A stretch of 14,084 nucleotides of DNA from a virus (taxonomy: Duplodnaviria > Heunggongvirae > Uroviricota > Caudoviricetes). The DNA is taken from positions 1-14,084 of the IMG/VR virus record IMGVR_UViG_2541047837_000006; one strand, given 5' to 3'. Positions 1 to 14,084 of the stretch are shown here, piece by piece. How positions within the stretch are numbered: position 1 is the first letter of the stretch; every line of letters begins with the position of its first letter. The position numbers were made by a program, and so were the translations under genes. The notes under the pieces are model-generated. The model was not told where the DNA came from and searched no databases. It saw only the letters and a program-made list of their open reading frames with translations.

Positions 1-288
1 TCAATGGTTGGCGTCATTATCTTTTTCTCTTTCTGAACGTGAATATTGCGGTGGACGGTTCATCAGCTGTGGGGCAAGACGTTTTGCCACCTGAAGAATA
101 ACCACCACCGCAGCGGGAAGCATGAGCAAAACACCGAGAAAAATCATCAGAATCTGCACTTCTGGCCGAGAAAATGGCTCAGGCAGCGACAGGGAGTCGC
201 TTACCGACAGCAGCGCCACCGCCAGTAGCATCATTCCGATAAATTCCAGTATCAACACGCCTTTAGGCAATTTACCGATCGCGCGCAT
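1..288 (-). CDS. ybjC: Small inner-membrane protein YbjC (DUF1418 family)
   Basis: 95-aa ORF with hydrophobic segments; translation matches my recollection of E. coli YbjC; divergent from grxA as in E. coli. Confidence 0.8.
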   Translation of the reverse strand: MRAIGKLPKGVLILEFIGMMLLAVALLSVSDSLSLPEPFSRPEVQILMIFLGVLLMLPAAVVVILQVAKRLAPQLMNRPPQYSRSEREKDNDANH

Positions 289-447
289 ACGCTTCCCTCT
301 GCAAAGTGAGCCTTCAGTCTAAAACTTTTCACTGTATTGTGTTTAACAGTTATAGCTTTTAGCAATTAATGCAACAGGTTAAACCTACTTTCAGCGAATA
401 CATTTTAGCGTGATCATTACAGGCATAAATCTATGAGGAGAGAAATA

Positions 448-705
448 ATGCAAACCGTTATTTTTGGTCGTTCGGGTTGCCCTTACTGTGTGCGTGCAAA
501 AGATCTGGCTGAGAAATTGAGCAATGAACGCGATGATTTTCAGTATCAGTATGTAGATATTCGTGCGGAAGGGATCACTAAAGAAGATCTACAACAAAAG
601 GCAGGTAAACCCGTAGAAACCGTGCCGCAGATTTTTGTCGATCAGCAACATATCGGCGGCTATACCGATTTTGCTGCATGGGTGAAAGAAAATCTGGACG
701 CCTGA
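448..705 (+). CDS. grxA: Glutaredoxin 1
   Basis: Translation MQTVIFGRSGCPYCVRAKDLAEKL carries the CPYC active-site motif. Start chosen at ATG 448 (SD-like GAGGAGAG at 436-443) rather than the in-frame ATG at 433. Confidence 0.93.
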   Translation: MQTVIFGRSGCPYCVRAKDLAEKLSNERDDFQYQYVDIRAEGITKEDLQQKAGKPVETVPQIFVDQQHIGGYTDFAAWVKENLDA

Positions 706-714
706 TCGTCTGAC

Positions 715-747
715 AAGCCCTCGCGTTGAGGGCTTTACTGATTTTTT
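715..747. terminator. Putative bidirectional terminator between convergent grxA and ybjM
   Basis: Stem agccctc (716-722) / gagggct (728-734) with 5-nt loop, followed by T-run 742-747; lies between two convergent stop codons. Confidence 0.45.
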
Positions 748-1112
748 CTGTGCTGTGGTTTAAACAAACTACTGATAAATAAGAAACACAGTGCCCCCAG
801 CGCACACCAGAACACCGCGCTTAGTAACCATGCCAGCTCTTGCCAGAATGAGCGCGTCGGTGAAAAAAACAGCCGCATAATGAGCATCGAACAGGGTGCC
901 GCCAGCATTGCGCCAAACAGAGGTTTCAGGACTTCTCTACGCTGTGAAAAGAAGCTGGCGACTGCTCCAGGAAGAATGAAAAATAGCAAGCCGATTTCAG
1001 GATGCCCGGCAGCCCGAAAAGCGCCTTTCATGTGCGTCGCCAGAAAAAGGCACACCACAATGAAGAGGACAAAACAGCAGATTGCCCCCGCCCAACGTTG
1101 TTTATGTTTCAC
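735..1112 (-). CDS. ybjM: Inner-membrane protein YbjM
   Basis: 125-aa strongly hydrophobic ORF; translation and position next to grxA and ybjL match E. coli YbjM as I recall it. Confidence 0.8.
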   Translation of the reverse strand: MKHKQRWAGAICCFVLFIVVCLFLATHMKGAFRAAGHPEIGLLFFILPGAVASFFSQRREVLKPLFGAMLAAPCSMLIMRLFFSPTRSFWQELAWLLSAVFWCALGALCFLFISSLFKPQHRKNQ

Positions 1113-1381
1113 TCGTTCCTCCTGACACTGCGTCTATCGAACACATTTTTCGCCAGTGTGGCGTTCAGTAAGATAAAGCCGCTTCGCATTCCATGCTAAT
1201 ATAGGCCAACGCAATTCATATAGCCGTTGATACCTAATGTGATTACACTAGTAAAATATATTGTTGCTTTACTATCGTTTAGGTGCGCTGAATGAATCTG
1301 CGCCCTGAATTCTGGTAAAAAACATTATCGTAAATTACCATTTCTTTCAACAGCTTACTAGTAAACAAGAAGTTAGCCTCC

Positions 1382-3067
1382 GTGAATATAAACGTCGCCG
1401 AATTGTTAAATGGGAATTACATTCTGTTATTATTTGTGGTCCTCGCGCTTGGGCTATGTCTCGGAAAGTTACGACTTGGTTCGATCCAACTGGGTAATTC
1501 CATTGGCGTTTTAGTCGTATCGCTGTTATTAGGCCAACAACATTTCAGCATTAACACCGATGCGCTTAATCTTGGCTTTATGCTGTTTATTTTCTGCGTC
1601 GGGGTCGAAGCCGGACCGAACTTTTTTTCCATTTTTTTTCGCGATGGGAAAAATTACCTAATGTTAGCACTGGTGATGGTTGGCAGTGCGCTGGTGATCG
1701 CCTTAGGGTTAGGTAAGCTGTTTGGCTGGGATATTGGCCTGACGGCCGGTATGTTAGCAGGCTCTATGACGTCGACACCGGTTCTGGTCGGTGCTGGCGA
1801 TACACTGCGTCATTCCGGCATGGAAAGCAGGCAGCTCTCACTGGCACTGGATAATCTGAGCCTCGGGTATGCCTTAACCTATTTAATCGGTCTGGTGAGT
1901 TTGATTGTTGGTGCGCGTTACTTGCCGAAATTGCAGCATCAGGACTTACAGACCAGCGCCCAGCAAATCGCCCGCGAACGTGGCCTGGACACTGATGCCA
2001 ACCGTAAGGTTTATTTACCGGTGATCCGCGCCTATCGCGTCGGCCCGGAACTGGTGGCCTGGACCGACGGCAAAAATCTGCGTGAACTGGGTATTTATCG
2101 ACAAACCGGCTGCTACATTGAACGTATTCGACGTAACGGGATTCTGGCAAATCCAGACGGTGATGCCGTGCTACAAATGGGCGATGAAATAGCGTTGGTA
2201 GGCTATCCCGACGCCCATGCCCGACTCGATCCCAGCTTCCGTAACGGTAAAGAAGTTTTCGATCGTGACCTTCTCGACATGCGTATCGTCACTGAAGAAG
2301 TGGTCGTTAAAAACCATAACGCTGTAGGTAAACGTCTCGCACAACTGAAGTTGACCGATCACGGTTGCTTCCTTAACCGCGTCATTCGTAGCCAGATTGA
2401 GATGCCGATAGATGACAACGTCGTGCTTAACAAAGGTGACGTTTTACAAGTCAGCGGCGATGCCCGCCGCGTAAAAACCATCGCCGATCGCATCGGCTTT
2501 ATCTCGATTCACAGCCAGGTCACTGACCTGCTGGCATTCTGCGCCTTCTTTGTTATTGGGCTGATGATCGGGATGATCACCTTCCAGTTCAGCACATTCA
2601 GTTTCGGCATGGGGAACGCTGCCGGGTTGTTATTCGCCGGAATTATGCTGGGCTTTATGCGTGCTAACCACCCGACCTTCGGTTACATTCCGCAGGGTGC
2701 ATTAAGCATGGTGAAAGAGTTCGGCTTGATGGTGTTTATGGCAGGCGTTGGTCTGAGCGCCGGTAGCGGTATTAATAACGGCCTGGGCGCGATTGGCGGT
2801 CAGATGTTGATTGCCGGATTGATTGTCAGTCTGGTGCCCGTGGTTATCTGTTTCTTGTTCGGTGCTTATGTATTGCGAATGAACCGCGCGCTGTTGTTCG
2901 GCGCAATGATGGGCGCACGTACCTGCGCGCCGGCAATGGAGATCATCAGTGATACAGCTCGCAGTAACATCCCGGCGCTGGGCTATGCGGGCACCTATGC
3001 AATCGCCAACGTCCTGCTGACGCTGGCAGGGACAATCATCGTCATGGTATGGCCAGGATTAGGATAA
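1382..3067 (+). CDS. ybjL: Putative AAE-family transporter YbjL (membrane domains flanking cytoplasmic TrkA-C-like domains)
   Basis: 561-aa ORF with GTG start at 1382; hydrophobic N- and C-terminal blocks around a soluble central region; translation [20 protein letters not shown] matches YbjL. Confidence 0.88.
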
Positions 3068-3179
3068 AACTGAAGTTGCCCTGAAAATGAAATTTTTTTG
3101 CACAACCGCAGAACTTTTCCGCAGGGCATCAGTCTTAATTAGTGCCACTGCTTTTCTTTGATGTCCCCATTTTGTGGAG

Positions 3180-3222
3180 CCCATCAACCCCGCCATTTCG
3201 GTTCAAGGTTGATGGGTTTTTT
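3180..3222 (+). terminator. Rho-independent terminator downstream of ybjL
   Basis: Stem cccatcaacc (3180-3189) / ggttgatggg (3207-3216) followed by TTTTTT (3217-3222). Confidence 0.55.
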
Positions 3223-3302
3223 GTTGCCTGAAATTTATACCGTTTAAAATCATGATGTTAGAAGAACTGTTTTTTAACGATGGCGACAAAATGGCGGCAG
3301 CG

Positions 3303-3521
3303 TCAAAGAGAGAGCGCCACCTGCCCTGATTTCATTGGATGCGGCTGAACCGGATTTGACTCTTTTGGCGTTGCAATCGAACGAACAAAAGTTTCATGAG
3401 TAACAAAAGTATGGCTGCAGTTAATGTTCTGGCACTGGTTGTAACGCTCTTTGGTCAATGAAGATACCTGAAAACTGCTGCGAGTATGGGCGGCACTTCC
3501 ACACAGTGGGCAAATCATCAT
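3303..3521 (-). CDS. ogr: Ogr/Delta-family zinc-finger late transcription activator
   Basis: 72-aa product from ATG at 3521 (SD-like GGGGAGAA upstream); C-x2-C-x22-C-x4-C motif (CPLC ... CQNINC). The ORF is open to a GTG at 3554, so the start is uncertain. Confidence 0.85.
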   Translation of the reverse strand: MMICPLCGSAAHTRSSFQVSSLTKERYNQCQNINCSHTFVTHETFVRSIATPKESNPVQPHPMKSGQVALSL

Positions 3522-3611
3522 TTTTCGAGTTCTCCCCATTTTTGCTAAATTCACAATAATGATACCGCATTATCCCATTTTGCAAACTTAAAAGTTCTCC
3601 ATTGCGAAGAA

Positions 3612-4880
3612 TCATTCCATTTCGAAATCATCAATCCTCACTTCAAGCTCCAGACTGGTCGTAAAACCATTATCCGGGCTGACGGTATGTGTCAGAGTCG
3701 TAATGGTCCATTCCGCATCATCTATCGGCTGTTTAAAGCCACTGACTTTCACTGGCATTTCCGTGTAGAGATCTGCCCGCCCTTCCGCCAGTTGTAGCGA
3801 GAATGACGCAACGCCGCGTTGCAGGCGTTCCCACTGCATTTTCGCCGCTCGTTCAGCGTTGCCCCGGTTGGCATAAGTACGATTAAGTACCAGCACGTTT
3901 TCATCCGTACCCACCAGGTAATCGCCCTGCTTCGCTTCCGGCTCTTTCTTCTGCTTTGCGGTCCTGCGCTTACGCTTCACCGTGGTGCTTTCTTTCTTCG
4001 CGGGTTCGCGGGTATGCAACCAGCTGGCAATTACGCCCGTGTAAGATCCGCGATCTGCCAGGGTAAAGCGGTGACTGTCGCCGTCCTTACGTGTGATAGT
4101 GATCACCGGCAGTGGTTTACCGCTGGCGCTTTTACCCTGTCCCTGCCGAATGAATAACAGATTGCCATTTTTCACCGACGCAATAGCACCGTACTGGCGC
4201 GCCAGCCGCATCAGAAAACTGCCGTCACTCTCATTAGTCTGGTCTATATGTTCCACGGGTTTATCTGACAGGTCTTTACCCAGTGCCATCTTCAGCTTGT
4301 GACGCGCGGCTATTTCCTTCACCACTTCCCCAACTGTGGTCTTGTGCCACGATTTTTCACGGCGGGTATTCAGCGTTTCCCGAAAATCAGCACTTCGCGC
4401 CCGGACACCGTCCACAATTTCCACCATGTTGATAAGGTCCACTTCGTAGAGCACCTCACCATTGATGGTCAGCTTCGCGTAGCTGTTGGTACTGGTCACT
4501 TTGGTGGTGTTGCTTTCGCCCGTCTTCCACTCGCCGGAATCCACTTCTTTGTGACGTCCACGCACCACAAGCTCCACGGCCTGCACTTCCCCGGTATCGT
4601 CACGCTGGATAGAGCCGGTAAAGCGCAGCTGGATGCCATCCACCGTAGCTTTGCCCATCTGCTTAAACAGCAGCAGCTCAGTACCGCCAATGGAAAATTC
4701 AGTATCCAGTGCGCCGTCATCCAGTCCCAGATCCACATCCACCGCCCCCGGCATACCGCCGCCGCGATACTTCTCATATTTGCGGGTGAATTTCGGCAGC
4801 GTCAGCGACTCTACGATCCCCTGCCAGTTGTTCCCGTCGTTAAACAGGTTCAGATGTTTTAATTTACGTGGTAAAGCCAT
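3612..4880 (-). CDS. Chimeric ORF: tail tube FII-like N-terminus (~155 aa) fused in frame to tail protein D-like C-terminus (~265 aa); probable deletion product
   Basis: N-terminus MALPRKLKHLNLFNDG resembles P2 FII tail tube; C-terminus resembles the gpD family and sits directly upstream of ogr as D does in P2. The genes expected between FII and D (E, E', T, U) are absent. Confidence 0.65.
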   Translation of the reverse strand: MALPRKLKHLNLFNDGNNWQGIVESLTLPKFTRKYEKYRGGGMPGAVDVDLGLDDGALDTEFSIGGTELLLFKQMGKATVDGIQLRFTGSIQRDDTGEVQAVELVVRGRHKEVDSGEWKTGESNTTKVTSTNSYAKLTINGEVLYEVDLINMVEIVDGVRARSADFRETLNTRREKSWHKTTVGEVVKEIAARHKLKMALGKDLSDKPVEHIDQTNESDGSFLMRLARQYGAIASVKNGNLLFIRQGQGKSASGKPLPVITITRKDGDSHRFTLADRGSYTGVIASWLHTREPAKKESTTVKRKRRTAKQKKEPEAKQGDYLVGTDENVLVLNRTYANRGNAERAAKMQWERLQRGVASFSLQLAEGRADLYTEMPVKVSGFKQPIDDAEWTITTLTHTVSPDNGFTTSLELEVRIDDFEME

Positions 4881-4889
4881 GTTGCCCCC

Positions 4890-6062
4890 TTACGCGCTTA
4901 CCTGGCTGGAGAAATTCACCAGGTACTGATCGGTGATGCGCTGACGCAGCATCAGGTTTTCAAGTGGCGGTACTGGCGTGTAGTCGTAATCGATGGTGAG
5001 TTTTCCGGCTTTCAGCGTGTCTTTATCGTTCACCGACTCGTCCAGCCAGCAATCACCACCAATGAGATAGCCCTGACTGACCAGGCTGCGCATTTTGGCG
5101 CGAATACCTTCGATAATGTCGCGGGCCAGCGACGGGTTCAGCGGTTTGTCCACCGCCCACATATGCGCTTCTGCCATCGTGTCCATCAGTACCTGCGCCG
5201 TGCGGGTGTAGTTTTCGAAGGCAAAGAGCGGGTCATCACTCAGGCAGCGGGAACCCCAGAAGCGGAAACCGTCTTTGCGGATAAGCGTGGTGACGTCGTT
5301 CTGGTTAAGCAGTCCCGCATCGGTTGCCGGGTCCTGCAGATCCCAGAACACATCAGCAGAAATTCCGGTGACACCGTTCACGCCTACGTTGGACAGGCTC
5401 TTGTGCCACCCGGTCTGCTCATCAATTTTGGCGCGCAGACCGAGCGCACGGGCGGTGGCATATGCCGTTGCTTCGGCATTCAGCACCGTGTCCCAGCCAG
5501 TAAAGTCAGGCCAGATCAGCATCCCTTCGCGCTGACTGAAGTTTTCACGGTAAGTGATCGCCTCCTGCACTGTCTTGCAGCCATACGCTGACAGGTAAGC
5601 AAACCCGCGCAGGCTTTGCGCCACACTCAGCAGCTCAGTCGCAACGGCTTTGTTATCGTGACCCGGCACGCCGAGAATGCGCGGTTTAACGCCGAGCTGT
5701 GACTGGGCAGATAACAGGGCTTTCATACCTGTTTTTTTACCCTCGGCGGTCACTGCGCCAATGATATTGGTTGTGGTTTCTTCTTCCGTTTCACCCTGCG
5801 GCACACGCACAACAACGGTCACGGGTTTTGCCTGGTCAGCGATGGCATCCAGCGAACGGGCCAGCGTGCCGGACTCACCCGCTTTACCGCTGGCAGTCAG
5901 CACATCAGTGATCAGCACGGGTTTATTAAGAGGAAACATTTTTGCATCGGCATCATCGCCCGTGCAGACCATGCCCACGATGGCGGTGCTCACCGTGGTA
6001 ATGGATCGGGTGCCTTCGTTGACTTCAACAACGCGCACTCCGTGGTGGTAATCCTGAGCCAT
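4890..6062 (-). CDS. FI: Contractile tail sheath protein FI
   Basis: 390-aa product; N-terminus [19 protein letters not shown] and C-terminal region [13 protein letters not shown] match P2 FI as I recall it; immediately upstream of the FII-like ORF. Confidence 0.9.
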
Positions 6063-6084
6063 AAGGCAGTCTCTCCGGTTGTAG

Positions 6085-6160
6085 AGGGGGTCTGCCTATG
6101 TTCTGGTTGATACGCGCAGGGTGCACGCGATGGGGATTGTATGGGAAATGGCACAACAGC
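6085..6160 (-). promoter_or_regulatory. Putative Ogr-dependent late promoter pF (dyad TGT-N12-ACA at 6138-6155)
   Basis: TGT (6138-6140), 12-nt spacer, ACA (6153-6155); dyad centre about 85 nt upstream of the FI ATG, consistent with a -55 activator site and ~30-nt leader. Confidence 0.5.
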
Positions 6161-6275
6161 GCCATGAGGGCTTTTCATAAAATAATCAATATATCTCAAT
6201 ATGTATTGATTATTATACGCAAATCTATTTTACTATTGCGCATCTGTCATCCATTTAAATCAGATTGAATACTAT

Positions 6276-7307
6276 ATGAAAAGAGATATTTCTTTAGACC
6301 TGTTACGTATTATTTGTTGTATTTTTGTAATAGGAATTCATGTCACGCCCGACTATGCTTATACTGTTACCAGTAACCAAACAGAAAGTATACAAATACA
6401 AACTCTTTTTGCACAATCAATTGTACGCATTGGTTTACCAATATTCTTTATGTTAAGTGGATACTACCTACTCAACAGACAAAATAGCACTCCACTTTTG
6501 TTTTATAAAAAAAGAATCCCCGCCATTATTATCCCTTTTGTAATATATTCATTAGCACATTACTATATTATTAGCTGGAATAATGGAACGTCATCGAATT
6601 TACTTGAATATTTCTCATTAATATCTAAAAGCACTATTTCACTCTCTGTGCATTTCTGGTTTGTTTATGCCTTTATCGGTTTGTATTTAACCGCTCCAGC
6701 AATTCAATACATAGTCAATAAAATCCCACAAGCCGACAGCCTTAAGGTGATTATAGTTTTGGCTTTCATTTTTTATTATTCATTATACTCATACTCTCTA
6801 AGCCAATCCTCTCAATACTACCATCATTTAATCCCATTACAGAGCATAGATACATGGGTTTTATATTTTGTTGTCGGCGGATTATTAAAAAGAGTTGACA
6901 TTAAAACACATTATATTGTATATAGCATCCCTTTTATATTTTTACTACATGTGATGTTTGTTTATTTTAGCGTTAACAAATATAACTTTAACATATACCC
7001 ATTTGACTCAGGGATTAATATGTTGTTAATGTGTTCCTTGATAGTAATTGCATTTACAAAAATAAACATCAATAATAAAAAAATAATTTTAATCATTGAA
7101 AAAATAGCACCTCTGACATACGGAATTTATTTAATTCATGTTTGTGTTTTCAGAGTCTTAGAGAAATATTTCAATATTCCTTTTATCGTGGACAACATTT
7201 TACTAAAAACAACATCCCTGTCTTTAGTCATTTTTTTTATCAGCCTTGGTTTAAGCTTGATTATTGATCGGTTGTTTGTTAATCCAATTCTCAGACTGAA
7301 TCGTTAA
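6276..7307 (+). CDS. Acyltransferase-3 family integral membrane protein (Oac/OafA-like acyltransferase); prophage cargo gene
   Basis: 343 aa, highly hydrophobic with multiple predicted TM segments; N-terminal LDLLRIICCIFVIGIHV resembles the family signature; strongly AT-rich; occupies the position of Z/fun in P2. Confidence 0.72.
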   Translation: MKRDISLDLLRIICCIFVIGIHVTPDYAYTVTSNQTESIQIQTLFAQSIVRIGLPIFFMLSGYYLLNRQNSTPLLFYKKRIPAIIIPFVIYSLAHYYIISWNNGTSSNLLEYFSLISKSTISLSVHFWFVYAFIGLYLTAPAIQYIVNKIPQADSLKVIIVLAFIFYYSLYSYSLSQSSQYYHHLIPLQSIDTWVLYFVVGGLLKRVDIKTHYIVYSIPFIFLLHVMFVYFSVNKYNFNIYPFDSGINMLLMCSLIVIAFTKININNKKIILIIEKIAPLTYGIYLIHVCVFRVLEKYFNIPFIVDNILLKTTSLSLVIFFISLGLSLIIDRLFVNPILRLNR

Positions 7308-7767
7308 ATGGCTTAGTCGGAAAGGCTGTATCAGAGGCTTTTGATGGATCAATAGCCTCTAATGCTTCAATATAATCAAGCCATATGTTATACATTTCCA
7401 GTTCAGTAGCATTCAGTCTCCCAAGCAATGCTTTCCCCTGCCATTGTTTGTTATTTATATAATTTACAGCTTCTATTATACGTGCTTGTTTTTCAGTTTT
7501 TGCTTTAGCCACTAACTCTGTATATGTGAGTGGTGGCGTATCAATCCATGCAGGCATACCATTATCATCTGCCCCAAGAATTTTTCCTTCCGGAGGTTGT
7601 TTCATGAATTCACAAGCAGTCTCATTTGAAATATCCACCCCTTCCTTAGGCCACATTCCATTTCTTTCATATTCATTTTTTAATATATACGCCATAAATC
7701 TGGCATTTACCTTATCCCATATGAAATCATAAGAAGAATCATGTTGATAATCATCACAACTTTTCAT
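7291..7767 (-). CDS. Tail fibre assembly chaperone (Tfa / gpG-like)
   Basis: 158-aa ORF starting 2 nt after the H stop; soluble protein with a C-terminal region resembling Tfa proteins; AT-rich like the 3' end of H. Confidence 0.6.
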   Translation of the reverse strand: MKSCDDYQHDSSYDFIWDKVNARFMAYILKNEYERNGMWPKEGVDISNETACEFMKQPPEGKILGADDNGMPAWIDTPPLTYTELVAKAKTEKQARIIEAVNYINNKQWQGKALLGRLNATELEMYNIWLDYIEALEAIDPSKASDTAFPTKPFNDSV

Positions 7768-7769
7768 AT

Positions 7770-9209
7770 TTAATATCCAAATGCAATAAATACAGCGCCT
7801 GAAACTTTTGAATCACTGCTGGTTCCTGATGTCAAACAAGTTACAGCAGTAAACCCATCATTATATATACTTTCGCACGACGTAACGACTTGTGCATATG
7901 TCATTTTTGTGACAAACACACCCCATACTCCGTTAGGGAATGGCGTTGGATATGTAATAGGAAGCTGTTGTGGAATACCAATAGTTGTACTATTAGGAAG
8001 ATTTCTTCGAAATATTTGTATAATTAAACCATTCGGACCTTTAACCAACAAATTATCGCTTCCTTTTCCTGTTAGCTGAAAATAGCTCATGTCAGGGATT
8101 TCATAACTATTAGCATTACCAACATTTCTACCTGCCGCATTTCCCAAATGCCCTAAACCAAGATAAGTAAGAATTCCTTCTATATCCTTTCCACTCAAAT
8201 TAGTCAGCGTATTATCCAGCGGTTGTTTGCCTGCCAGCGCATTAAGCATTGTCGTGGCAAAGTTCGGGTCATTCCCCAGCGCCGCCGCCAGTTCGTTCAG
8301 TGTATCCAGTGCCGCAGGTGCAGACCCCACCATTGCTGCAATTGCCGATTTCACAAAAGCTGTAGTGGCAATCTGTGTATTGTTGACCGACTGCGCCGCC
8401 GTGGGGGCTGTTGGCGTTCCGGTGAGTGCCGGACTCGACAACGGTGCTTTTAGTGCCAGCACATTGTTAATGGTGGTACTGAAATTCGGATCATTGTTAA
8501 TGGCTGCGGCTATTTCTTTCAGCGTGTCCAGCGTGGCTGGCGCACCATTAATAAGGGCCGTCAGTGCCGCCTGAACAAACGCAGTGGTCGCAACCTGCGT
8601 GGTATTATTCCCCGCCGCTGGCGTTGGCGCTTTGGGGGTTCCGGTAAACGTCGGACTTTCTTTGGGTGCATACTGTGAATGTGGGTCCTGTGCGGCAAGG
8701 TGTTTTGCCATCAGGTCATCCACATACACCTTCAGCTCCAGTACCTTGTCATCCACATACTTGCGGGTTGCCAGCACTACAGCAGGATCGATTTTCAGGG
8801 TGATATTTTCCGTGCTGCTGGTAATCAGCACCATGCGCACGGTCTGGGTGCGCCCGCTGCCTTCAGCCAGTTGCGGCTTATAGCTTTCCGGGCAGTTGCC
8901 CACGGCAATCAATGCCCCGGACTCATCAAACAGGCCCACTTCACGTATCCACCAACCTCCCTCGTTTTCAGGGATCACCTGTTCGGCAATAATCTGGCTG
9001 CTGTTCTGCGGGTCGATATAGAGCATATTCAGCGCAGCCCGGCGTTTCTCATTTACCAGTGCCGTCTGCTTTGCGTCCGGCGTTGGCAATGTTCCGCCGC
9101 CATCGCCGACCGCCATATGGGTAATTTTTAAAGGCACACCGAGCGCGGCGGCGCTGGCAAGTTTCGCCGCGCCAATATCCGTCAGCAGGGTATAAAATTT
9201 TGTGCTCAT
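7770..9209 (-). CDS. H: Tail fibre protein H with conserved N-terminus and divergent C-terminal receptor-binding region
   Basis: N-terminus MSTKFYTLLTDIGAAKLA ... MAVGDGGG ... ESYKPQLAEGSGR resembles P2 gpH; internal repeats contain the NELAAALGNDPNF motif; C-terminal ~160 aa unrelated and AT-rich. Confidence 0.85.
   Translation of the reverse strand: MSTKFYTLLTDIGAAKLASAAALGVPLKITHMAVGDGGGTLPTPDAKQTALVNEKRRAALNMLYIDPQNSSQIIAEQVIPENEGGWWIREVGLFDESGALIAVGNCPESYKPQLAEGSGRTQTVRMVLITSSTENITLKIDPAVVLATRKYVDDKVLELKVYVDDLMAKHLAAQDPHSQYAPKESPTFTGTPKAPTPAAGNNTTQVATTAFVQAALTALINGAPATLDTLKEIAAAINNDPNFSTTINNVLALKAPLSSPALTGTPTAPTAAQSVNNTQIATTAFVKSAIAAMVGSAPAALDTLNELAAALGNDPNFATTMLNALAGKQPLDNTLTNLSGKDIEGILTYLGLGHLGNAAGRNVGNANSYEIPDMSYFQLTGKGSDNLLVKGPNGLIIQIFRRNLPNSTTIGIPQQLPITYPTPFPNGVWGVFVTKMTYAQVVTSCESIYNDGFTAVTCLTSGTSSDSKVSGAVFIAFGY
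8230..8700. repeat. Diverged tandem duplication (~230 bp unit) inside tail fibre gene H
   Basis: Two protein-level repeats (ATTAFV...ALDTL.E.AAA...DPNF.TT) and corresponding DNA similarity, e.g. gttccggtgagtgccgg versus gttccggtaaacgtcgg; boundaries approximate. Confidence 0.55.
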
Positions 9210-9811
9210 GGATTCACTCTCATTGTGTCAATAACATGGACCGCCCCGCCTTCATGCGCGGTGCCGCCGGAAATAATTGTTTCGTTGATATACGGATAGA
9301 TCGTGATTTCTTCACCAAGATAGCTGGCGGCTCCCACCCAATGCGGGCCGCTGGTCTGCAGATTGATGGACATGCCGATCATGTGACGGCTACATGGTTT
9401 GGCATCGCTTATCAGCCGCTCAAGCTCCAGATAGGTATCTTCAGTGATGCCCTGGTCCTGCACACCAATGTCCAGGCGAAACGTACCCGGTGTTTCTCCG
9501 GTCTGCCACCACTCAATAATGCGGATCAGGAAGCCGAACGGCTCCACCACCCGCCGCACGGCACTGGTGGTTCCTTTATGCTGATGAATATAAAAAGCAT
9601 CCTTCACCACCTGTCGTTTGACGCTTTCCGTCCAGCCCTCGTCCCAGCGATCCACAGAGAACGCCCAGGCGAGATAAGGCAGGAAACTGATCGGACAGGT
9701 CGTTGGATTCCACAAGTCACGCAGCGGCACCTGCAGATCAGAAATCCCGCTGCAGGTTTGCGCCAGTCGGCGCTCCAGTGGCGTTGAACCCGGTGGCAGC
9801 AGACTATTCAT
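9206..9811 (-). CDS. I: Baseplate/tail protein I
   Basis: 201-aa product with the motif LRDLWNPTTCP ... LAWAFSVDRWDE ... GTFRLDIGV ... DAKPCSRHMIG resembling P2 gpI; start overlaps the preceding J' stop and its stop overlaps the H start. Confidence 0.8.
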   Translation of the reverse strand: MNSLLPPGSTPLERRLAQTCSGISDLQVPLRDLWNPTTCPISFLPYLAWAFSVDRWDEGWTESVKRQVVKDAFYIHQHKGTTSAVRRVVEPFGFLIRIIEWWQTGETPGTFRLDIGVQDQGITEDTYLELERLISDAKPCSRHMIGMSINLQTSGPHWVGAASYLGEEITIYPYINETIISGGTAHEGGAVHVIDTMRVNP

Positions 9812-10034
9812 CCGTTCCTCCGTTGGTTACGCTCCACTGCGTACATGATGCCGCCTGTGTTTTGTTCAGGACCACATCCGCCAGAGGAGAAGCCAGCTCC
9901 ACACGCTGCACACCCTCAACATGCAGGGCGGCAAAGATGGCGCTACGGCGAATATCCCGACCAAGACGCGTCTGACTGGCGATGTACTTCTGCAGGCTGG
10001 CTTTTGCCGCTGCCATTACCGGCTCTGCTTCCGG
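9804..10034 (-). pseudogene. J: Baseplate protein J, C-terminal ~70-aa fragment
   Basis: Translation AKASLQKYIASQTRLGRDIRRSAIFAALHVEGVQRVEL resembles the gpJ C-terminus; the frame is closed by a stop at 10035-10037, so the N-terminal ~230 aa are absent. Confidence 0.6.
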
Positions 10035-10375
10035 TCAGCGAACTTCGGGCTGACTTCCATAGAGGTGAATAATTTCTGGCCTTTTTTCACCAGTTCCACC
10101 AGGGACTCCGTTGGCTCAACGTCGGCATACAGCGCCATCTTGCCTGCCAGCGGACCTTCCGTGATTTCTTCAGCAAACAGCGCCGTCACCTTGCCGTAGC
10201 GGTTAAAGGTGCTGTCCGGCAGATAAGACTTGATGTGCTCAAGGTTAATCAGCGCGGTATACACCGCCGGGTTGTAGCTGGCTGCCATCTGTTCCAGCCA
10301 TTCTCGCTGGATTTCGCGTCCGTCGGTGGTGGCACCTTCCACCCCGATGCGAAAACGCTTTGCTTTCACTGTCAT
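10016..10375 (-). pseudogene. O: Capsid scaffold protein O, N-terminal ~110-aa fragment
   Basis: Translation FRIGVEGATTDGREIQ ... INLEHIK ... TSMEVSPKFA resembles the gpO N-terminus; ORF ends after 119 aa versus ~280 aa for intact O. Confidence 0.65.
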
Positions 10376-10399
10376 GAGCCGTGCTCCGTTAGAAAAAAC

Positions 10400-10475
10400 T
10401 TACTGGAGCCTTATGGTTGCGGTGATGGGGGCAGTGAAACAATGCGCGGTATTTGTACCGACAACCACACAAACC
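10400..10475 (-). promoter_or_regulatory. Putative Ogr-dependent late promoter pO (dyad TGT-N12-ACA at 10454-10471)
   Basis: TGT (10454-10456), 12-nt spacer, ACA (10469-10471); dyad centre ~87 nt upstream of the O' ATG, the same spacing as the FI dyad. Confidence 0.5.
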
Positions 10476-10517
10476 GCAGGCGGGGAAAGCCTTCATTCAA
10501 GGCTGTAGGTTTGTGCC

Positions 10518-11372
10518 ATGAACACCACACTGACACCCGCAGATCTCGATCCCCGTCGGCAGGCCATGCTGCTGTACTTTCAGGGATACCGCGTAGCCCG
10601 CATTGCTGAAATGCTGGGCGAGAAAGTTGCAACCGTTCACAGCTGGAAAAAACGCGACAAGTGGGGTGACTATGGGCCGCTGGATCAGATGCAGCTCACC
10701 ACCGCCGCACGCTACTGCCAGCTCATCATGAAGGAGCACAAAGAAGGGAAAGATTTCAAAGAGATTGACCTGCTGGCGCGCCAGTCTGAGCGCCACGCGC
10801 GGATCGGCAAGTTTAACAATGGCGGCAACGAATCCGACTTAAACCCTAACGTCGCCAACCGCAACAAAGGCCCACGCCGTCAGCCGGAAAAGAATGTTTT
10901 CACCGATGAGCAGATTGAGAAGCTGGAAGAAATCTTCCATTCCTCCATGTTCAACTACCAGCGCCACTGGTGGGAAGCCGGAAAAACCAACCGCATCCGC
11001 AACCTGCTGAAGTCACGCCAGATCGGCGCGACCTTTTACTTTGCCCGTGAAGCCCTGATTGACGCCCTGCTGACCGGACGTAACCAGATTTTCCTTTCCG
11101 CCAGCAAGGCACAGGCCCACGTCTTTAAGCAGTACATCATCGACTTCGCCAAAGAAGTGGAGGTGGAGTTGAAAGGCGATCCGATGGTGCTTCCTAACGG
11201 GGCCACGCTTTACTTCCTCGGCACCAATGCCCGCACTGCCCAGAGTTATCACGGCAACCTGTATCTGGATGAATATTTCTGGATACCGAAATTCCAGGAG
11301 CTGCGCAAAGTGGCTTCCGGTACCGCACCTGCAGCAACACGCCCGATCTCTGCGGTTGCACTCATGACGTAA
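10518..11372 (+). pseudogene. P: Terminase large subunit P, N-terminal ~268-aa fragment
   Basis: Translation ...[15 protein letters not shown] ... [12 protein letters not shown] ... [15 protein letters not shown] ... [15 protein letters not shown] resembles the gpP N-terminus; similarity ends near 11321 and the ORF stops at 11372 versus ~590 aa for intact P. Confidence 0.8.
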
Positions 11373-11662
11373 TGTGGCAGTTTCTCTTTTGCCACCTCAT
11401 TAATTGGTACGCATGGCAGGCAGTGAATCTGTGCCAGAAAACCATCTACCAACGTTGAATCTTCAGTCAGATCGGTAAGCAGCCAGATTTCTGGTGCGGT
11501 TAATAAATGAGGTTGAGCTGGGTTCAGCTTGTTCCGCAGAATCTGCACATTCATGCCCGCACGTTCTGCCAGTTGCACCAGATTGTGGCGCAGTGCGAAT
11601 GCACGACAGGCTTCATCAAAATGTGGATGTTTGGAAACTTGGTAATCAAACATGGTTTTCAA
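11249..11662 (-). pseudogene. 186 CII-like transcription activator, 3'-truncated; ORF tail runs antisense into the P fragment
   Basis: N-terminal ~105 aa with an HTH-like segment ([19 protein letters not shown]) and position downstream of the apl-like gene; the last ~30 codons are the antisense of P coding sequence. Confidence 0.5.
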
Positions 11663-11717
11663 CTCCGAACTTATCGCAAAATCGAACTCAGCGTCTTATT
11701 GCGAAAATAGACGTCTA

Positions 11718-11921
11718 TTAAGCAGACAAAGCATCAACAGTCAGAGCAGCCAGGTTAATCATTACCTTTTCACGTTTTTTGTCTTTACGAAGACGATGAC
11801 GAGGTAGTCGGCCATCAGCCAACATGTCGTTAATCGTATCAATAGAAAGGCCAGTCAGTTCGCTATAACGTTCGATTGTGACATGTGGTGTATTCAGAGT
11901 AATTGAAATGTTAGGTGTCAT
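11718..11921 (-). CDS. Apl/Cox-like small DNA-binding excisionase and switch regulator
   Basis: 67-aa basic ORF, first gene divergent from the repressor and followed by the CII-like gene, the arrangement of the 186 lytic operon; SD-like AAGGA upstream. Confidence 0.6.
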
Positions 11922-12066
11922 AAGGCAACATTCCTTCTAGATATGGCTTGTGGCGAGCCGTTGTTTGTCGTGATTAGTAGTGAAGGCTCCAAAAGAACAC
12001 TTCTGGTTCAACTTTAAGATCGCTTTTGGAATCTGTCAACGAATTTTGGATTTCTTTGGAGGACTT
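11922..12066. promoter_or_regulatory. Putative immunity switch region (lytic and lysogenic promoters with operators) between apl-like and cI-like genes
   Basis: Divergent gene starts; 8-bp perfect inverted repeat tccaaaag (11988-11995) / cttttgga (12023-12030). Promoter elements not individually resolved. Confidence 0.4.
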
Positions 12067-12636
12067 GTGGATTTCAATAGCGGCGGTAAGAAAGCCATAG
12101 AACGTTTAGTTGAAGCATATGGGTTCGGTACCCGTCAGGCTCTCTGTGATCATTTAGGTGTTTCTAAGAGCACCATGGCAACGCGCTATATGCGTGATAT
12201 TTTTCCAGCAGATTGGGTAATCCAGTGCGCCCTTGAAACGGGCACCTCGCTTAATTGGCTAACAACAGGGCATGGTTCAAAGCAAGCATCAGCAAATACA
12301 AATACTATAGAAGTAGAAAAATATTTATTGTCTGATGGAGCATTGCAGAAAGACGGTTTTTATATTTTTGATAAGGGATTTCTACCCTCTACGTTTAAAA
12401 AACCTTTTGTCATCACAGATAACAATTCTGAATTTATTTGTGATAAAGAATTTGATGATATACGTGATGGTAAATGGGTAATAAGTATTGATGGCGAAAT
12501 AACGATCCGTGACATTACTCGTTTACCCGGTGGAAGAATCTTCGTCGAGGGTGGAAACAGAGCCTTCGAATGCAAGATAGAAGACATTGAAATAATTGGT
12601 AAAATTATAAGTTTAACAGTCAAGCATGTTAAATAG
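12067..12636 (+). CDS. 186 CI-type immunity repressor (~189 aa)
   Basis: Divergent from apl and upstream of int; LVEAYGFG N-terminal region and overall length consistent with the 186 CI family. Start set at GTG 12067 (GGAGGA at 12058-12063); the ORF is open to a GTG at 11980, so the start is uncertain. Confidence 0.65.
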   Translation: MDFNSGGKKAIERLVEAYGFGTRQALCDHLGVSKSTMATRYMRDIFPADWVIQCALETGTSLNWLTTGHGSKQASANTNTIEVEKYLLSDGALQKDGFYIFDKGFLPSTFKKPFVITDNNSEFICDKEFDDIRDGKWVISIDGEITIRDITRLPGGRIFVEGGNRAFECKIEDIEIIGKIISLTVKHVK

Positions 12637-12651
12637 TACCGGGAGGAAACT

Positions 12652-12843
12652 ATGCTTGGTAAGGTATTTTTTGTGGTTTTGTCATGTTCTTTGTTATTAA
12701 ACCCACTAACTACCTATGCTAGAAATTATCCCTGCTCAGGGAAAAAGGGAGGTGTTTCTCACTGTACCTCAGATGGCAAATTCGTTTGCAATGATGGAAC
12801 TATTAGTAAATCCAAAAAAATCTGTACTAAAAACTCACGATAA
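12652..12843 (+). CDS. Small secreted or lipid-anchored Cys-rich protein (63-aa precursor) of unknown function
   Basis: Strong SD GGGAGG 6 nt upstream of the ATG; N-terminal signal peptide ([23 protein letters not shown]); basic mature part of ~40 aa with 4 Cys; 15 nt downstream of cI on the same strand; AT-rich. Confidence 0.5.
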
Positions 12844-13031
12844 CTTTTGCTTTTATATCTGCGTCTAAAATAAAAATGAGCCGCAGGTTAACCGCAAAAG
12901 TTACATGCTCACATAGCAAAAAGAATAGCCAACTTCATGATGGCTTCAGTGAGATGTATGGTCGTAGGATTTCATACATTGACACTGGTTATACATACAG
13001 TAAAAATGCTCTCTACTGGAGGGCATTTTTT

Positions 13032-14084
13032 ATGGCAGTACGAAAACTCACCACAGGGAAATGGCTTTGCGAATGTTACCCCGCCGGACGTAGTGGGCGT
13101 CGTGTGCGTAAACAATTCGCCACCAAAGGCGAAGCTCTGGCTTTTGAGCGCCACACGATGGAAGAAACCGAAGCAAAGCCCTGGCTGGGTGAATCAGTGG
13201 ATCGTCGAACACTGAAAGACGTAGTTGAGCTATGGTTCAAACTACATGGTAAATCTCTGACAGCTGGGCAGCATGTCTATGACAAATTGCTGTTGATGGT
13301 TGACGCTCTGGGTAATCCTCTTGCAACCGATCTCACCTCTAAAATGTTTGCCCACTATCGAGATAAACGCCTGACAGGCGAGATCTACTTCAGCGAGAAA
13401 TGGAAGAAAGGAGCAAGCCCGGTCACCATTAACCTGGAGCAAAGCTATCTAAGTAGTGTTTTTAGCGAACTATCCCGTCTGGGCGAATGGTCGTATCCGA
13501 ACCCACTGGAGAACATGCGAAAATTCACCATCGCAGAAAAAGAGATGGCATGGCTTACCCATGAGCAGATTGTTGAATTGCTGGCTGATTGCAAACGTCA
13601 GGACCCAATTCTGGCACTGGTAGTTAAGATATGCTTAAGCACAGGCGCACGCTGGCGTGAAGCCGTAAATCTTACCCGCTCACAGGTGACCAAATACCGA
13701 ATTACCTTTGTCAGAACGGAGGGGAAGAAAAACAGAAGCATCCCTATCAGTAAAGAGCTTTACGAAGAGATCATGGCGCTTGATGGGTTCAATTTCTTTA
13801 CAGACTACTATTTTCAATTTTTATCCGTGATGGAAAAAACGTCTATCGTGCTCCCTCGCGGTCAACTCACACACGTTCTGCGCCATACGTTTGCGGCGCA
13901 CTTCATGATGTCGGGTGGAAACATTCTCGCCTTACAAAAAATTCTCGGACACCACGATATAAAAATGACTATGCGTTACGCACATCTGGCACCAGATCAT
14001 CTGGAAACGGCGCTCCGTTTCAATCCTCTGGCAACGCTGCCAAGTGGCGACAAAGTGGCGGCAGCGGTTGGCATTACCCCGTAA
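13032..14084 (+). CDS. int: Tyrosine recombinase (phage integrase)
   Basis: Catalytic signature present: R in LSTGARWREA, H-x-x-R in HVLRHTFAAH, Y in MTMRYAHL; N-terminal MAVRKLTTGKW typical of this integrase family. The ORF is open from 12876 but the extension is AT-rich and unlike integrase N-termini. Confidence 0.9.
   Translation: MAVRKLTTGKWLCECYPAGRSGRRVRKQFATKGEALAFERHTMEETEAKPWLGESVDRRTLKDVVELWFKLHGKSLTAGQHVYDKLLLMVDALGNPLATDLTSKMFAHYRDKRLTGEIYFSEKWKKGASPVTINLEQSYLSSVFSELSRLGEWSYPNPLENMRKFTIAEKEMAWLTHEQIVELLADCKRQDPILALVVKICLSTGARWREAVNLTRSQVTKYRITFVRTEGKKNRSIPISKELYEEIMALDGFNFFTDYYFQFLSVMEKTSIVLPRGQLTHVLRHTFAAHFMMSGGNILALQKILGHHDIKMTMRYAHLAPDHLETALRFNPLATLPSGDKVAAAVGITP

Follow-up and report, generated by a model that had tools for sequence, protein, structure and literature searches.

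Why does the tail fibre gene H of a P2-like prophage change composition abruptly near its 3' end, and why does the AT-rich sequence continue through the adjacent tail fibre assembly gene tfa and a convergent acyltransferase gene, neaT? The question arises in a 14,084-nucleotide stretch of tailed-phage DNA (IMG/VR record IMGVR_UViG_2541047837_000006, positions 1 to 14,084; hereafter the window), in which an earlier note had seen the exchange of a receptor-binding tip and its chaperone and had suggested that the acyltransferase may have come with them. The evidence described below favours, with a probability of roughly 0.8, a host-range cassette in which a foreign tip, its matching Tfa and neaT have been passed on and exchanged together, as a single block. 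Swaps of fibre tips are ordinary phage mosaicism, and neaT has already been published as a fitness gene of uropathogenic Escherichia coli. What is new here, and supported by the evidence, is that neaT is part of a three-gene recombination unit with a lectin-like tip and its chaperone, not a lone insertion.

Composition and homology of the tail fibre

The G+C content (GC) of the genes around the fibre is 0.568 in FI, 0.553 in I and 0.497 in H, compared with 0.365 in tfa and 0.297 in the acyltransferase gene, and that of positions 6100-8160 is 0.333 against 0.553 on either side. Within H, GC is about 0.55 over codons 1-330, and GC at third codon positions is 0.47-0.70 in the codon blocks up to 330 but 0.07-0.37 in blocks 331-480 (0.26 in tfa and 0.29 in the acyltransferase). 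Maximum likelihood places one change point at 8216 (2-log-likelihood support 8191-8233, likelihood ratio 72) and a second at 6172 (support 6164-6178, likelihood ratio 152). The compositional step is confirmed as real and sharp, and the AT-rich stretch between the two change points takes in the final 147 codons of H together with tfa and the acyltransferase. The GC plot that the earlier note had proposed thus shows a non-uniform H with a sharp step, and bears out a GC-rich, P2-like 5' two-thirds of the gene, a more AT-rich end of H and tfa, and a right-hand edge that had been put at 8200, inside the support interval. The AT-rich tail of H had been given as about 160 codons; it is AT-rich, but its length is 147 codons by composition and colinearity with P2, or 126 by comparison with the nearest relatives.

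The resemblance to P2 ends at the same place. The N-terminus of H matches PF12571 (Phage_tail_fib, E 2.1e-65), and amino acids 1-332 are colinear with amino acids 1-329 of P2 H at 54% identity (E 4e-91), the alignment ending at GKQP(L/K)D, which corresponds to window position 8214 and coincides with the change point. Pairwise comparison with P2 H gave no alignment beyond amino acid 332, and the C-terminal domains differ: PF21882 (gp53-like_C) in the window and PF21446 (Gp34_trimer) in P2 H. The protein is therefore of P2 type in its N-terminus and shaft and lacks the P2-type C-terminal receptor-binding region, the C-terminus being unrelated to that of P2 as had been claimed. The assignment of the tip to the gp53-like_C fibre tips follows both from a profile score above the curated cut-off (29.4 bits; cut-off 24.9) and from fold likeness to solved members. 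An AlphaFold model of the tip, with a mean predicted local distance difference test score (pLDDT) of 76, matches the foot of R1/R2 pyocin fibres and AP22 gp53, with H-type lectins ranking next; Foldseek E values to 6cxb, 6cl5, 6cl6 and 4mtm range from 3.3e-5 to 2.9e-4, with TMq of 0.49-0.57. A sequence search of the PDB with H returned a match for the shaft repeat only (9d93, gp4 collar fibre) and none for the tip.

The shaft itself contains, at 8216-8669 (amino acids 181-332), two diverged copies of a unit of about 75 amino acids, PxxTGTPxAPT...TTAFV...LDTLxExAAAxxNDPNF. One clear copy is present in P2 H, and the unit also matches the gp4 of 9d93. Direct repeats at the DNA level were sought in H and none was found.

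Tfa is a member of the Caudo_TAP family by profile (PF02413, E 7e-23; 81.7 bits, cut-off 22.1) and by position, its gene starting 3 nt past the stop codon of H on the same strand. Although P2 G is also a Caudo_TAP protein, there is no significant pairwise match between the two (E 0.035 over 16 amino acids). Across 50,697 phage records the best identity of Tfa is at most 51%, the tip has a single weak match (36%, phage pro483) and the acyltransferase matches only two remote faecal contigs; a tblastn search of named phages with neaT gave no match at E <= 1e-5. Relatives of the tip with 65-75% identity are found in Citrobacter and E. coli prophages, and the nearest outside the block's own lineage, also in such prophages, is about 72% identical (L004). 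The search for a donor, which the earlier note had suggested for tip and Tfa and which was run with all three proteins, identified no AT-rich donor lineage that could be named, the deposited phage genomes having no close match.

Evidence of exchange also comes from phages that share the flanks. Forty-eight deposited P2-like genomes match the flanks of the window, the best matches across I and the H shaft (95-96% nucleotide identity) being Cartapus, 500465-1 and a series of Klebsiella phages. The nucleotide identity of the closest backbone relatives is 95.5% in FI, the H shaft and I, and is again 95.5% between Cartapus H and the constant part of the window H. Among the matches listed, however, phage homology ends at 8151/8152, and that of Cartapus resumes at the FI start codon, 6063. 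In the intervening slot Cartapus carries a tip and tfa on one strand, a second pair (tfa' and tip') on the other and then a Gin-like DNA invertase gene, an arrangement that constitutes an invertible host-range segment. The same layout is found in a P2-like prophage of Citrobacter youngae (L016), whose tip is 71% identical to that of the window, and a serine invertase gene is present in Cartapus, L004, L006 and L016. In the window, no resolvase or invertase open reading frame was found in the slot (6063-8150), which contains neaT, tfa and the H tip only. Relatives that are 95.5% identical on both sides thus lose homology over 6063-8152 and carry another module there, which upholds the claim of a recombinational exchange of tip and chaperone.

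Such exchange of fibre C-termini with their chaperones in P2 H/G and its relatives is said to have been described by Haggard-Ljungquist et al. in 1992 and by Sandmeier in 1994. Like those mosaics, the window combines a conserved N-terminal part of H with an unrelated receptor-binding C-terminus and its own Caudo_TAP protein, with the joint in a conserved linker. Unlike them, it has a tip of the gp53-like_C or R-pyocin-foot type, and the exchanged unit includes an acyltransferase gene.

Evidence for inheritance of tip, tfa and neaT as a unit

The acyltransferase is an AT3-only membrane protein (PF01757, E 1.9e-40, 139.3 bits over residues 5-330) which also matches PHROG 3333, 'O-acetyltransferase' (E 2.4e-22). 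Among 18 homologues H22 is invariant and R11 nearly so. With two amino-acid differences from c0970 of E. coli CFT073, it is identified by sequence as neaT, the name given to c0970 by Wiles et al. 2013 (PMC3573123).

Whether neaT travelled with the tip and tfa can be judged by comparing the window with E. coli. The block (6100-8300) is 100% identical in E. coli LR-64-2 and E423 and 98.8% identical in CFT073. Between the window and CFT073, positions 5730-8151 contain 23 mismatches in 2,422 nt (0.95 per 100 nt), whereas the flanks (the 3' part of FI, the H shaft and I) contain 115 in 2,500 nt (4.6 per 100 nt; Fisher p = 7.5e-16). Synonymous divergence (dS) follows the same division, at 0.024-0.033 for tip, tfa and neaT and 0.12-0.16 for FI, the H shaft and I. 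The best two-breakpoint fit for the low-divergence tract is 5665-8150, and its right joint therefore coincides with the putative fossil crossover site discussed below. On the left, the tract reaches about 400 nt into FI, past the AT-rich block, which places the left recombination joint inside FI and not at the compositional boundary of 6172. All three coding regions are under purifying selection, with ratios of nonsynonymous to synonymous divergence (dN/dS) of 0.08-0.29 for the tip, 0.28-0.48 for tfa and 0.05-0.09 for neaT.

The same picture emerges from 5,426 complete E. coli genomes, of which 930 match the constant side and nine the AT-rich block, always whole. Among the matches listed, no genome has part of the block only, and the partial matches in the other 921 cover the constant side only, ending at 8144-8150.

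The triad, a fibre with a gp53-like tip followed by tfa and then a convergent acyltransferase gene, also recurs elsewhere. It is found in a diverged P2-like prophage (L017/L018; backbone about 83% and block about 72% identical in nucleotides), a Citrobacter freundii remnant at the ybjL site (L010-L013; acyltransferase 76% identical in amino acids), a Mu-like tail module (L019; 61%), a third baseplate/tail type (L015; 56%) and a Buttiauxella P2 remnant (L020; 36%). A convergent tfa lies just 3' of the acyltransferase gene in 8 of the 19 IMG/VR loci with acyltransferase relatives. The 3' ends of neaT and tfa overlap by 17 nt in the window (7291-7307) and by 4 nt in L017. Over five triads the divergences of the three proteins correlate pairwise (rho 0.83, 0.62 and 0.77). 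In the 5,426 complete E. coli genomes there is no match to the L017-type allele of the block; some sources label its proteins E. coli, but it appears to be mainly a Citrobacter allele.

Taken with the low-divergence tract, the recurrence of the triad in other backbones substantiates the suggestion that the acyltransferase is in the same block, and supports the conclusion that, within this phage group, the block is now transferred whole. AT-richness, from which the suggestion had been drawn, is indeed shared by the three genes but is a weak argument by itself. In the L019, L015 and L020 triads the acyltransferase alone is AT-rich, and neaT homologues are AT-rich wherever they are located (Wiles et al. 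2013, PMC3573123); composition is therefore no proof of common origin.

Alternative origins of the block

The main alternative is that two independent events took place: fibre recombination swapped the tip and tfa, and neaT inserted on its own, as a one-gene moron, at the G/FI hot spot, the adjacency being without functional significance. This is the description given by Wiles et al. 2013 (PMC3573123), who placed neaT, with 29.8% GC and rare in Proteobacteria, at 'moron position 2' in the G/FI interval as a single-gene insertion and did not tie it to the AT-rich tfa and H tip. Several observations lean the same way and weigh against a single block. The acyltransferase-only AT-richness of the three triads just named is one of them, and the GC of the block is itself uneven, 0.30 in neaT and about 0.37 in the tip and tfa. 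Morons are known to favour the slot that follows the fibre genes (PMC3573123), with P2 Z/fun at the same place, and adjacency by itself could reflect position. Relatives of the acyltransferase are also encoded at loci with no fibre genes close by (L014, L021-23, L034, L035 and others), and members of the tip family are found in invertible segments that have no acyltransferase, where tips are nearly as close to that of the window (66-72%) as is the neaT-linked tip of L017 (78%). Tip and acyltransferase have therefore not been strictly co-inherited over long times, and the rho values come from five triads, that is, 10 non-independent pairs.

Two separate events are nonetheless unlikely. They do not account for a single low-divergence tract spanning all three genes between the window and CFT073, for the lack of any partial block among the matches listed from E. 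coli genomes, for the triad with correlated divergences behind three tail backbones, or for the overlapping 3' ends of neaT and tfa. Since tips without acyltransferases and acyltransferases without fibres both exist, the block must have been assembled at some deeper time, and a two-event history probably applies to that deeper origin and not to the arrival of the block in this backbone.

Far less probable is that no exchange occurred, H having been inherited vertically and its AT-richness having arisen in place by relaxed or directional selection. Fibre tips and AT3 genes do tend to be AT-rich, and the tip/tfa modules of the relatives are also somewhat below their backbones in GC (0.43-0.48 vs 0.49-0.55). 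However, the sharp step coincides with the complete disappearance of homology to relatives whose backbones match at 95% on either side, and a PF21882 tip stands where P2 H has Gp34_trimer, so that in-place enrichment is already contradicted.

The fibre joint and invertible host-range segments

The right-hand joint of the exchanged cassette falls on a sequence that resembles an invertase crossover site. In Cartapus and L004, inverted repeats of the TTCTCnnAAACCnnGGTTTnnGAGAA type stand at either end of the invertible segment; we take this sequence to be the crossover-site consensus of Din-family (Hin/Gin/Cin/Pin) invertases, and the fibre gene of L006 has a TTCTCnnAAACCnnGGTTTnnGAGAA-type sequence at the homologous place. 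The window sequence TTCTTACTTATCTTGGTTTAGGGCAT aligns position for position with the sites of Cartapus, L004 and L006, and relatives of the tip on P2-like, Mu-like and third-type shafts all start aligning at the LGLG motif. It matches the consensus at 13 of 20 positions, whereas the relatives have sites that match at 17-19. Matches of 13/20 are equally frequent in shuffled sequence, which counts against a true relic, since by sequence alone the candidate is indistinguishable from chance; the case for it is one of positional homology alone. A partner crossover site or a second tip/tfa arm was sought in the window and none was found, and the locus differs from Din-invertase segments in having no adjacent invertase gene, no paired 26-bp inverted sites and no alternative arms. 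Because the putative site is degenerate and has neither a partner nor an invertase, we read it as a fossil marking the cassette boundary and not as part of a working switch. Another crossover-like sequence, TTAAACCAAGGCTGATAA (about 7241-7262, past the tfa stop codon), was rejected, scoring below 13/20 in the consensus scan and lying in the wrong place for a partner site.

Likeness to the invertible segments, driven by Din-family invertases, of Mu (G), P1 (C), e14 (P) and P2-like Elveevirus phages, Cartapus among them, extends beyond the boundary between constant and variable parts at an LGLG-encoding crossover sequence, and includes the position in the genome, the tip and tfa families and the overlapping convergent 3' ends. 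Unlike those segments, the window has no invertase, second arm or second site, and neaT replaces the alternative arm and the invertase. A fixed block of tip, tfa and neaT thus sits where the closest relatives have an invertase-driven host-range switch. That the block is still an active switch, flipped in trans by a resident Pin- or Gin-type invertase, is the least probable explanation of all, for although a crossover-like sequence lies exactly at the constant/variable boundary and working-looking switches occur in the nearest relatives, the lone, poorly matching site is accompanied in the window by no invertase gene, tfa'/tip' arm or second site.

In one IMG/VR contig (L042, 320-2131) the gene for a relative of the acyltransferase (41% identical) is directly preceded by that for a Cartapus-like invertase (83%) and followed by a convergent tfa, a layout that is possibly intermediate between the invertible and the acyltransferase-bearing arrangements.

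Proposed function of the cassette

If the cassette is inherited and exchanged as one block, its parts would work together as follows. The conserved GC-rich N-terminal two-thirds of H would anchor the fibre to the baseplate, and at the GKQPLD...LGLG junction, which is common to many myovirus fibre genes, the shaft is joined to the foreign AT-rich lectin-like tip, which would be folded and trimerised by Tfa as its matching chaperone. Tip, tfa and neaT fill the slot between H and the FI late promoter, taken in the nearest relatives by the invertible fibre segment and its invertase, and the block would be exchanged by homologous recombination in its conserved flanks (the H junction and FI).

R-pyocin feet bind lipopolysaccharide (LPS) sugars, and H-type lectins bind sugars of the N-acetylgalactosamine type. 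Because its model resembles both, the tip probably binds a surface carbohydrate, which could be the LPS core, the O-antigen or a similar glycan. The best structural matches of the model are the fibres of R-type pyocins (6CL5, 6CL6, 6CXB), which are P2-related contractile tails whose foot requires a Tfa-like chaperone. With sequence identities of 19-23%, TM-scores of 0.49-0.57 and a model of pLDDT 76, the comparison speaks to likeness of fold and not of specificity.

Phage enzymes such as Sf6 Oac, the phiV10 O-acetyltransferase and those of the P22-like GtrC/OafA type modify the O-antigen in lysogenic conversion and superinfection exclusion. NeaT resembles the phage O-antigen acetyltransferases in being a non-essential AT3 membrane acyltransferase encoded next to receptor-binding genes, and in being AT3-only as is Oac; the likeness is at the level of annotation (PHROG 3333), and sequence identities to these enzymes are 22-34% (table in Wiles et al. 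2013, PMC3573123). By this analogy, an Oac-type AT3-only enzyme encoded beside the tip would plausibly acylate the tip's glycan. In the lysogen, NeaT would thereby block superinfection by phages with the same tip and alter the cell surface. Acylation of the receptor glycan would explain both the linkage of neaT to the tip and its survival in decayed prophages.

The published phenotypes bear on this idea in both directions. Wiles et al. 2013 (PMC3573123) found that neaT raises fitness in bacteraemia (zebrafish and mice), complementing with neaT and 211 bp of upstream sequence, and reported aggregation and phagocyte-interaction phenotypes, which would fit acylation of a glycan. On the other hand, they saw no envelope phenotype that pinpointed the substrate of NeaT, which weighs against it. 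They also reported that deletion of yfdK, their name for tfa, attenuated CFT073, a result left unexplained. A full yfdK deletion would take the last five codons and the stop codon of neaT, and the attenuation may be due to this loss, as the overlap of the two genes would cost neaT its 3' end. No terminator separates neaT from tfa. A consensus scan of 6000-8300 found fewer promoter-like sites than in shuffled sequences and one weak terminator-like hairpin, inside H.

More broadly, it is tentatively suggested, as a reading that is possible but doubtful, that a mobile cassette which recognises the receptor and then masks it is distributed across P2-like, Mu-like and other contractile-tail prophages, with NeaT acylating the glycan that the tip binds. 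If true, such a recognise-then-mask cassette would give NeaT a substrate class and explain why this corner of the tail is kept in decayed prophages of E. coli, Citrobacter and Buttiauxella. It could also account for the yfdK attenuation through the 17 nt of neaT that are lost. The tie between neaT and the tip points to a surface glycan as the NeaT substrate, and offers a testable lead.

The prophage remnant and its gene map

The window covers the site between ybjL and rcdA on the E. coli chromosome, the annotation of LR-64-2 giving a matching remnant gene order, and in CFT073 the intact version of the prophage, phi-b0847, occupies the same site. The neaT of the window thus has the same identity, chromosomal site and neighbours as that of phi-b0847 but, unlike the CFT073 copy, lies in a P2-like prophage from which three large internal deletions have removed most of the genes (the FII-D fusion, the J-O junction and the P-CII junction). 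FII and D are fused in one intact open reading frame of 422 amino acids (3612-4880), a C-terminal fragment of J abuts an N-terminal fragment of O near 10034, and a truncated terminase gene P (10518-11327) abuts a truncated CII-like gene (11321-11653). The remnant spans 3303-11662, its complete genes being ogr, FI, neaT, tfa, H, I, the repressor and the integrase. The features of the region are collected in Table 1.

Table 1. Features of the fibre region, with positions in the window
Feature	Position	Strand	Remarks
FI, tail sheath gene	4890-6062	-	5' third (~5665-6062) inside the tract shared with CFT073
TGT-N12-ACA element upstream of FI	6138-6155		76-93 nt before the FI start (6062), on the GC-rich side of the 6172 change point
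AT-rich stretch 5' of neaT	6172-6275	.	Left end of the block by the 6172 change point; presumed neaT promoter
neaT, acyltransferase	6276-7307	+	343 amino acids; convergent with tfa
tfa (yfdK/c0969 in CFT073)	7291-7767	-	Assembly chaperone, 158 amino acids
H, tail fibre	7770-9209	-	479 amino acids
H C-terminus, amino acids 333-479 and stop	7770-8213	-	AT-rich; predicted receptor-binding tip, gp53-like_C type
Putative degenerate Din-family invertase crossover-site relic, TTCTTACTTATCTTGGTTTAGGGCAT	8148-8173	-	Encodes ..TYLGLGH..; would mark the joint of the exchanged cassette in H
H constant part, amino acids 1-332	8214-9209	-	N-terminal collar domain and shaft; GC-rich, P2-like
I	9206-9811	-

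The remnant lacks V, W, most of J, E, T, U, an intact FII and an intact D, and therefore cannot build tails. As a consequence, neaT is probably its only part that still matters to the cell. Although H and tfa remain intact in the window, they are probably bystanders; what is likely being maintained is neaT, as is the case for the remnants in Citrobacter and Buttiauxella. The Citrobacter remnant at ybjL (L010-L013, 4348-7286) is far more decayed, with the sheath gene in three open reading frames and tfa cut to 84 amino acids. Its acyltransferase is intact at 344 amino acids and is listed in 89 blocks of the collection, and it looks like a domesticated neaT homologue.

The TGT-N12-ACA element upstream of FI, which from established knowledge of P2 late promoters we take to be a P2-type activator site, is a backbone feature bounding the AT-rich block. 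Two more such elements, at 10454-10471 and 10512-10529, lie between the divergent O and P fragments, the position of late promoters in P2, so that late-promoter signals survive in the remnant alongside ogr (3303-3521).

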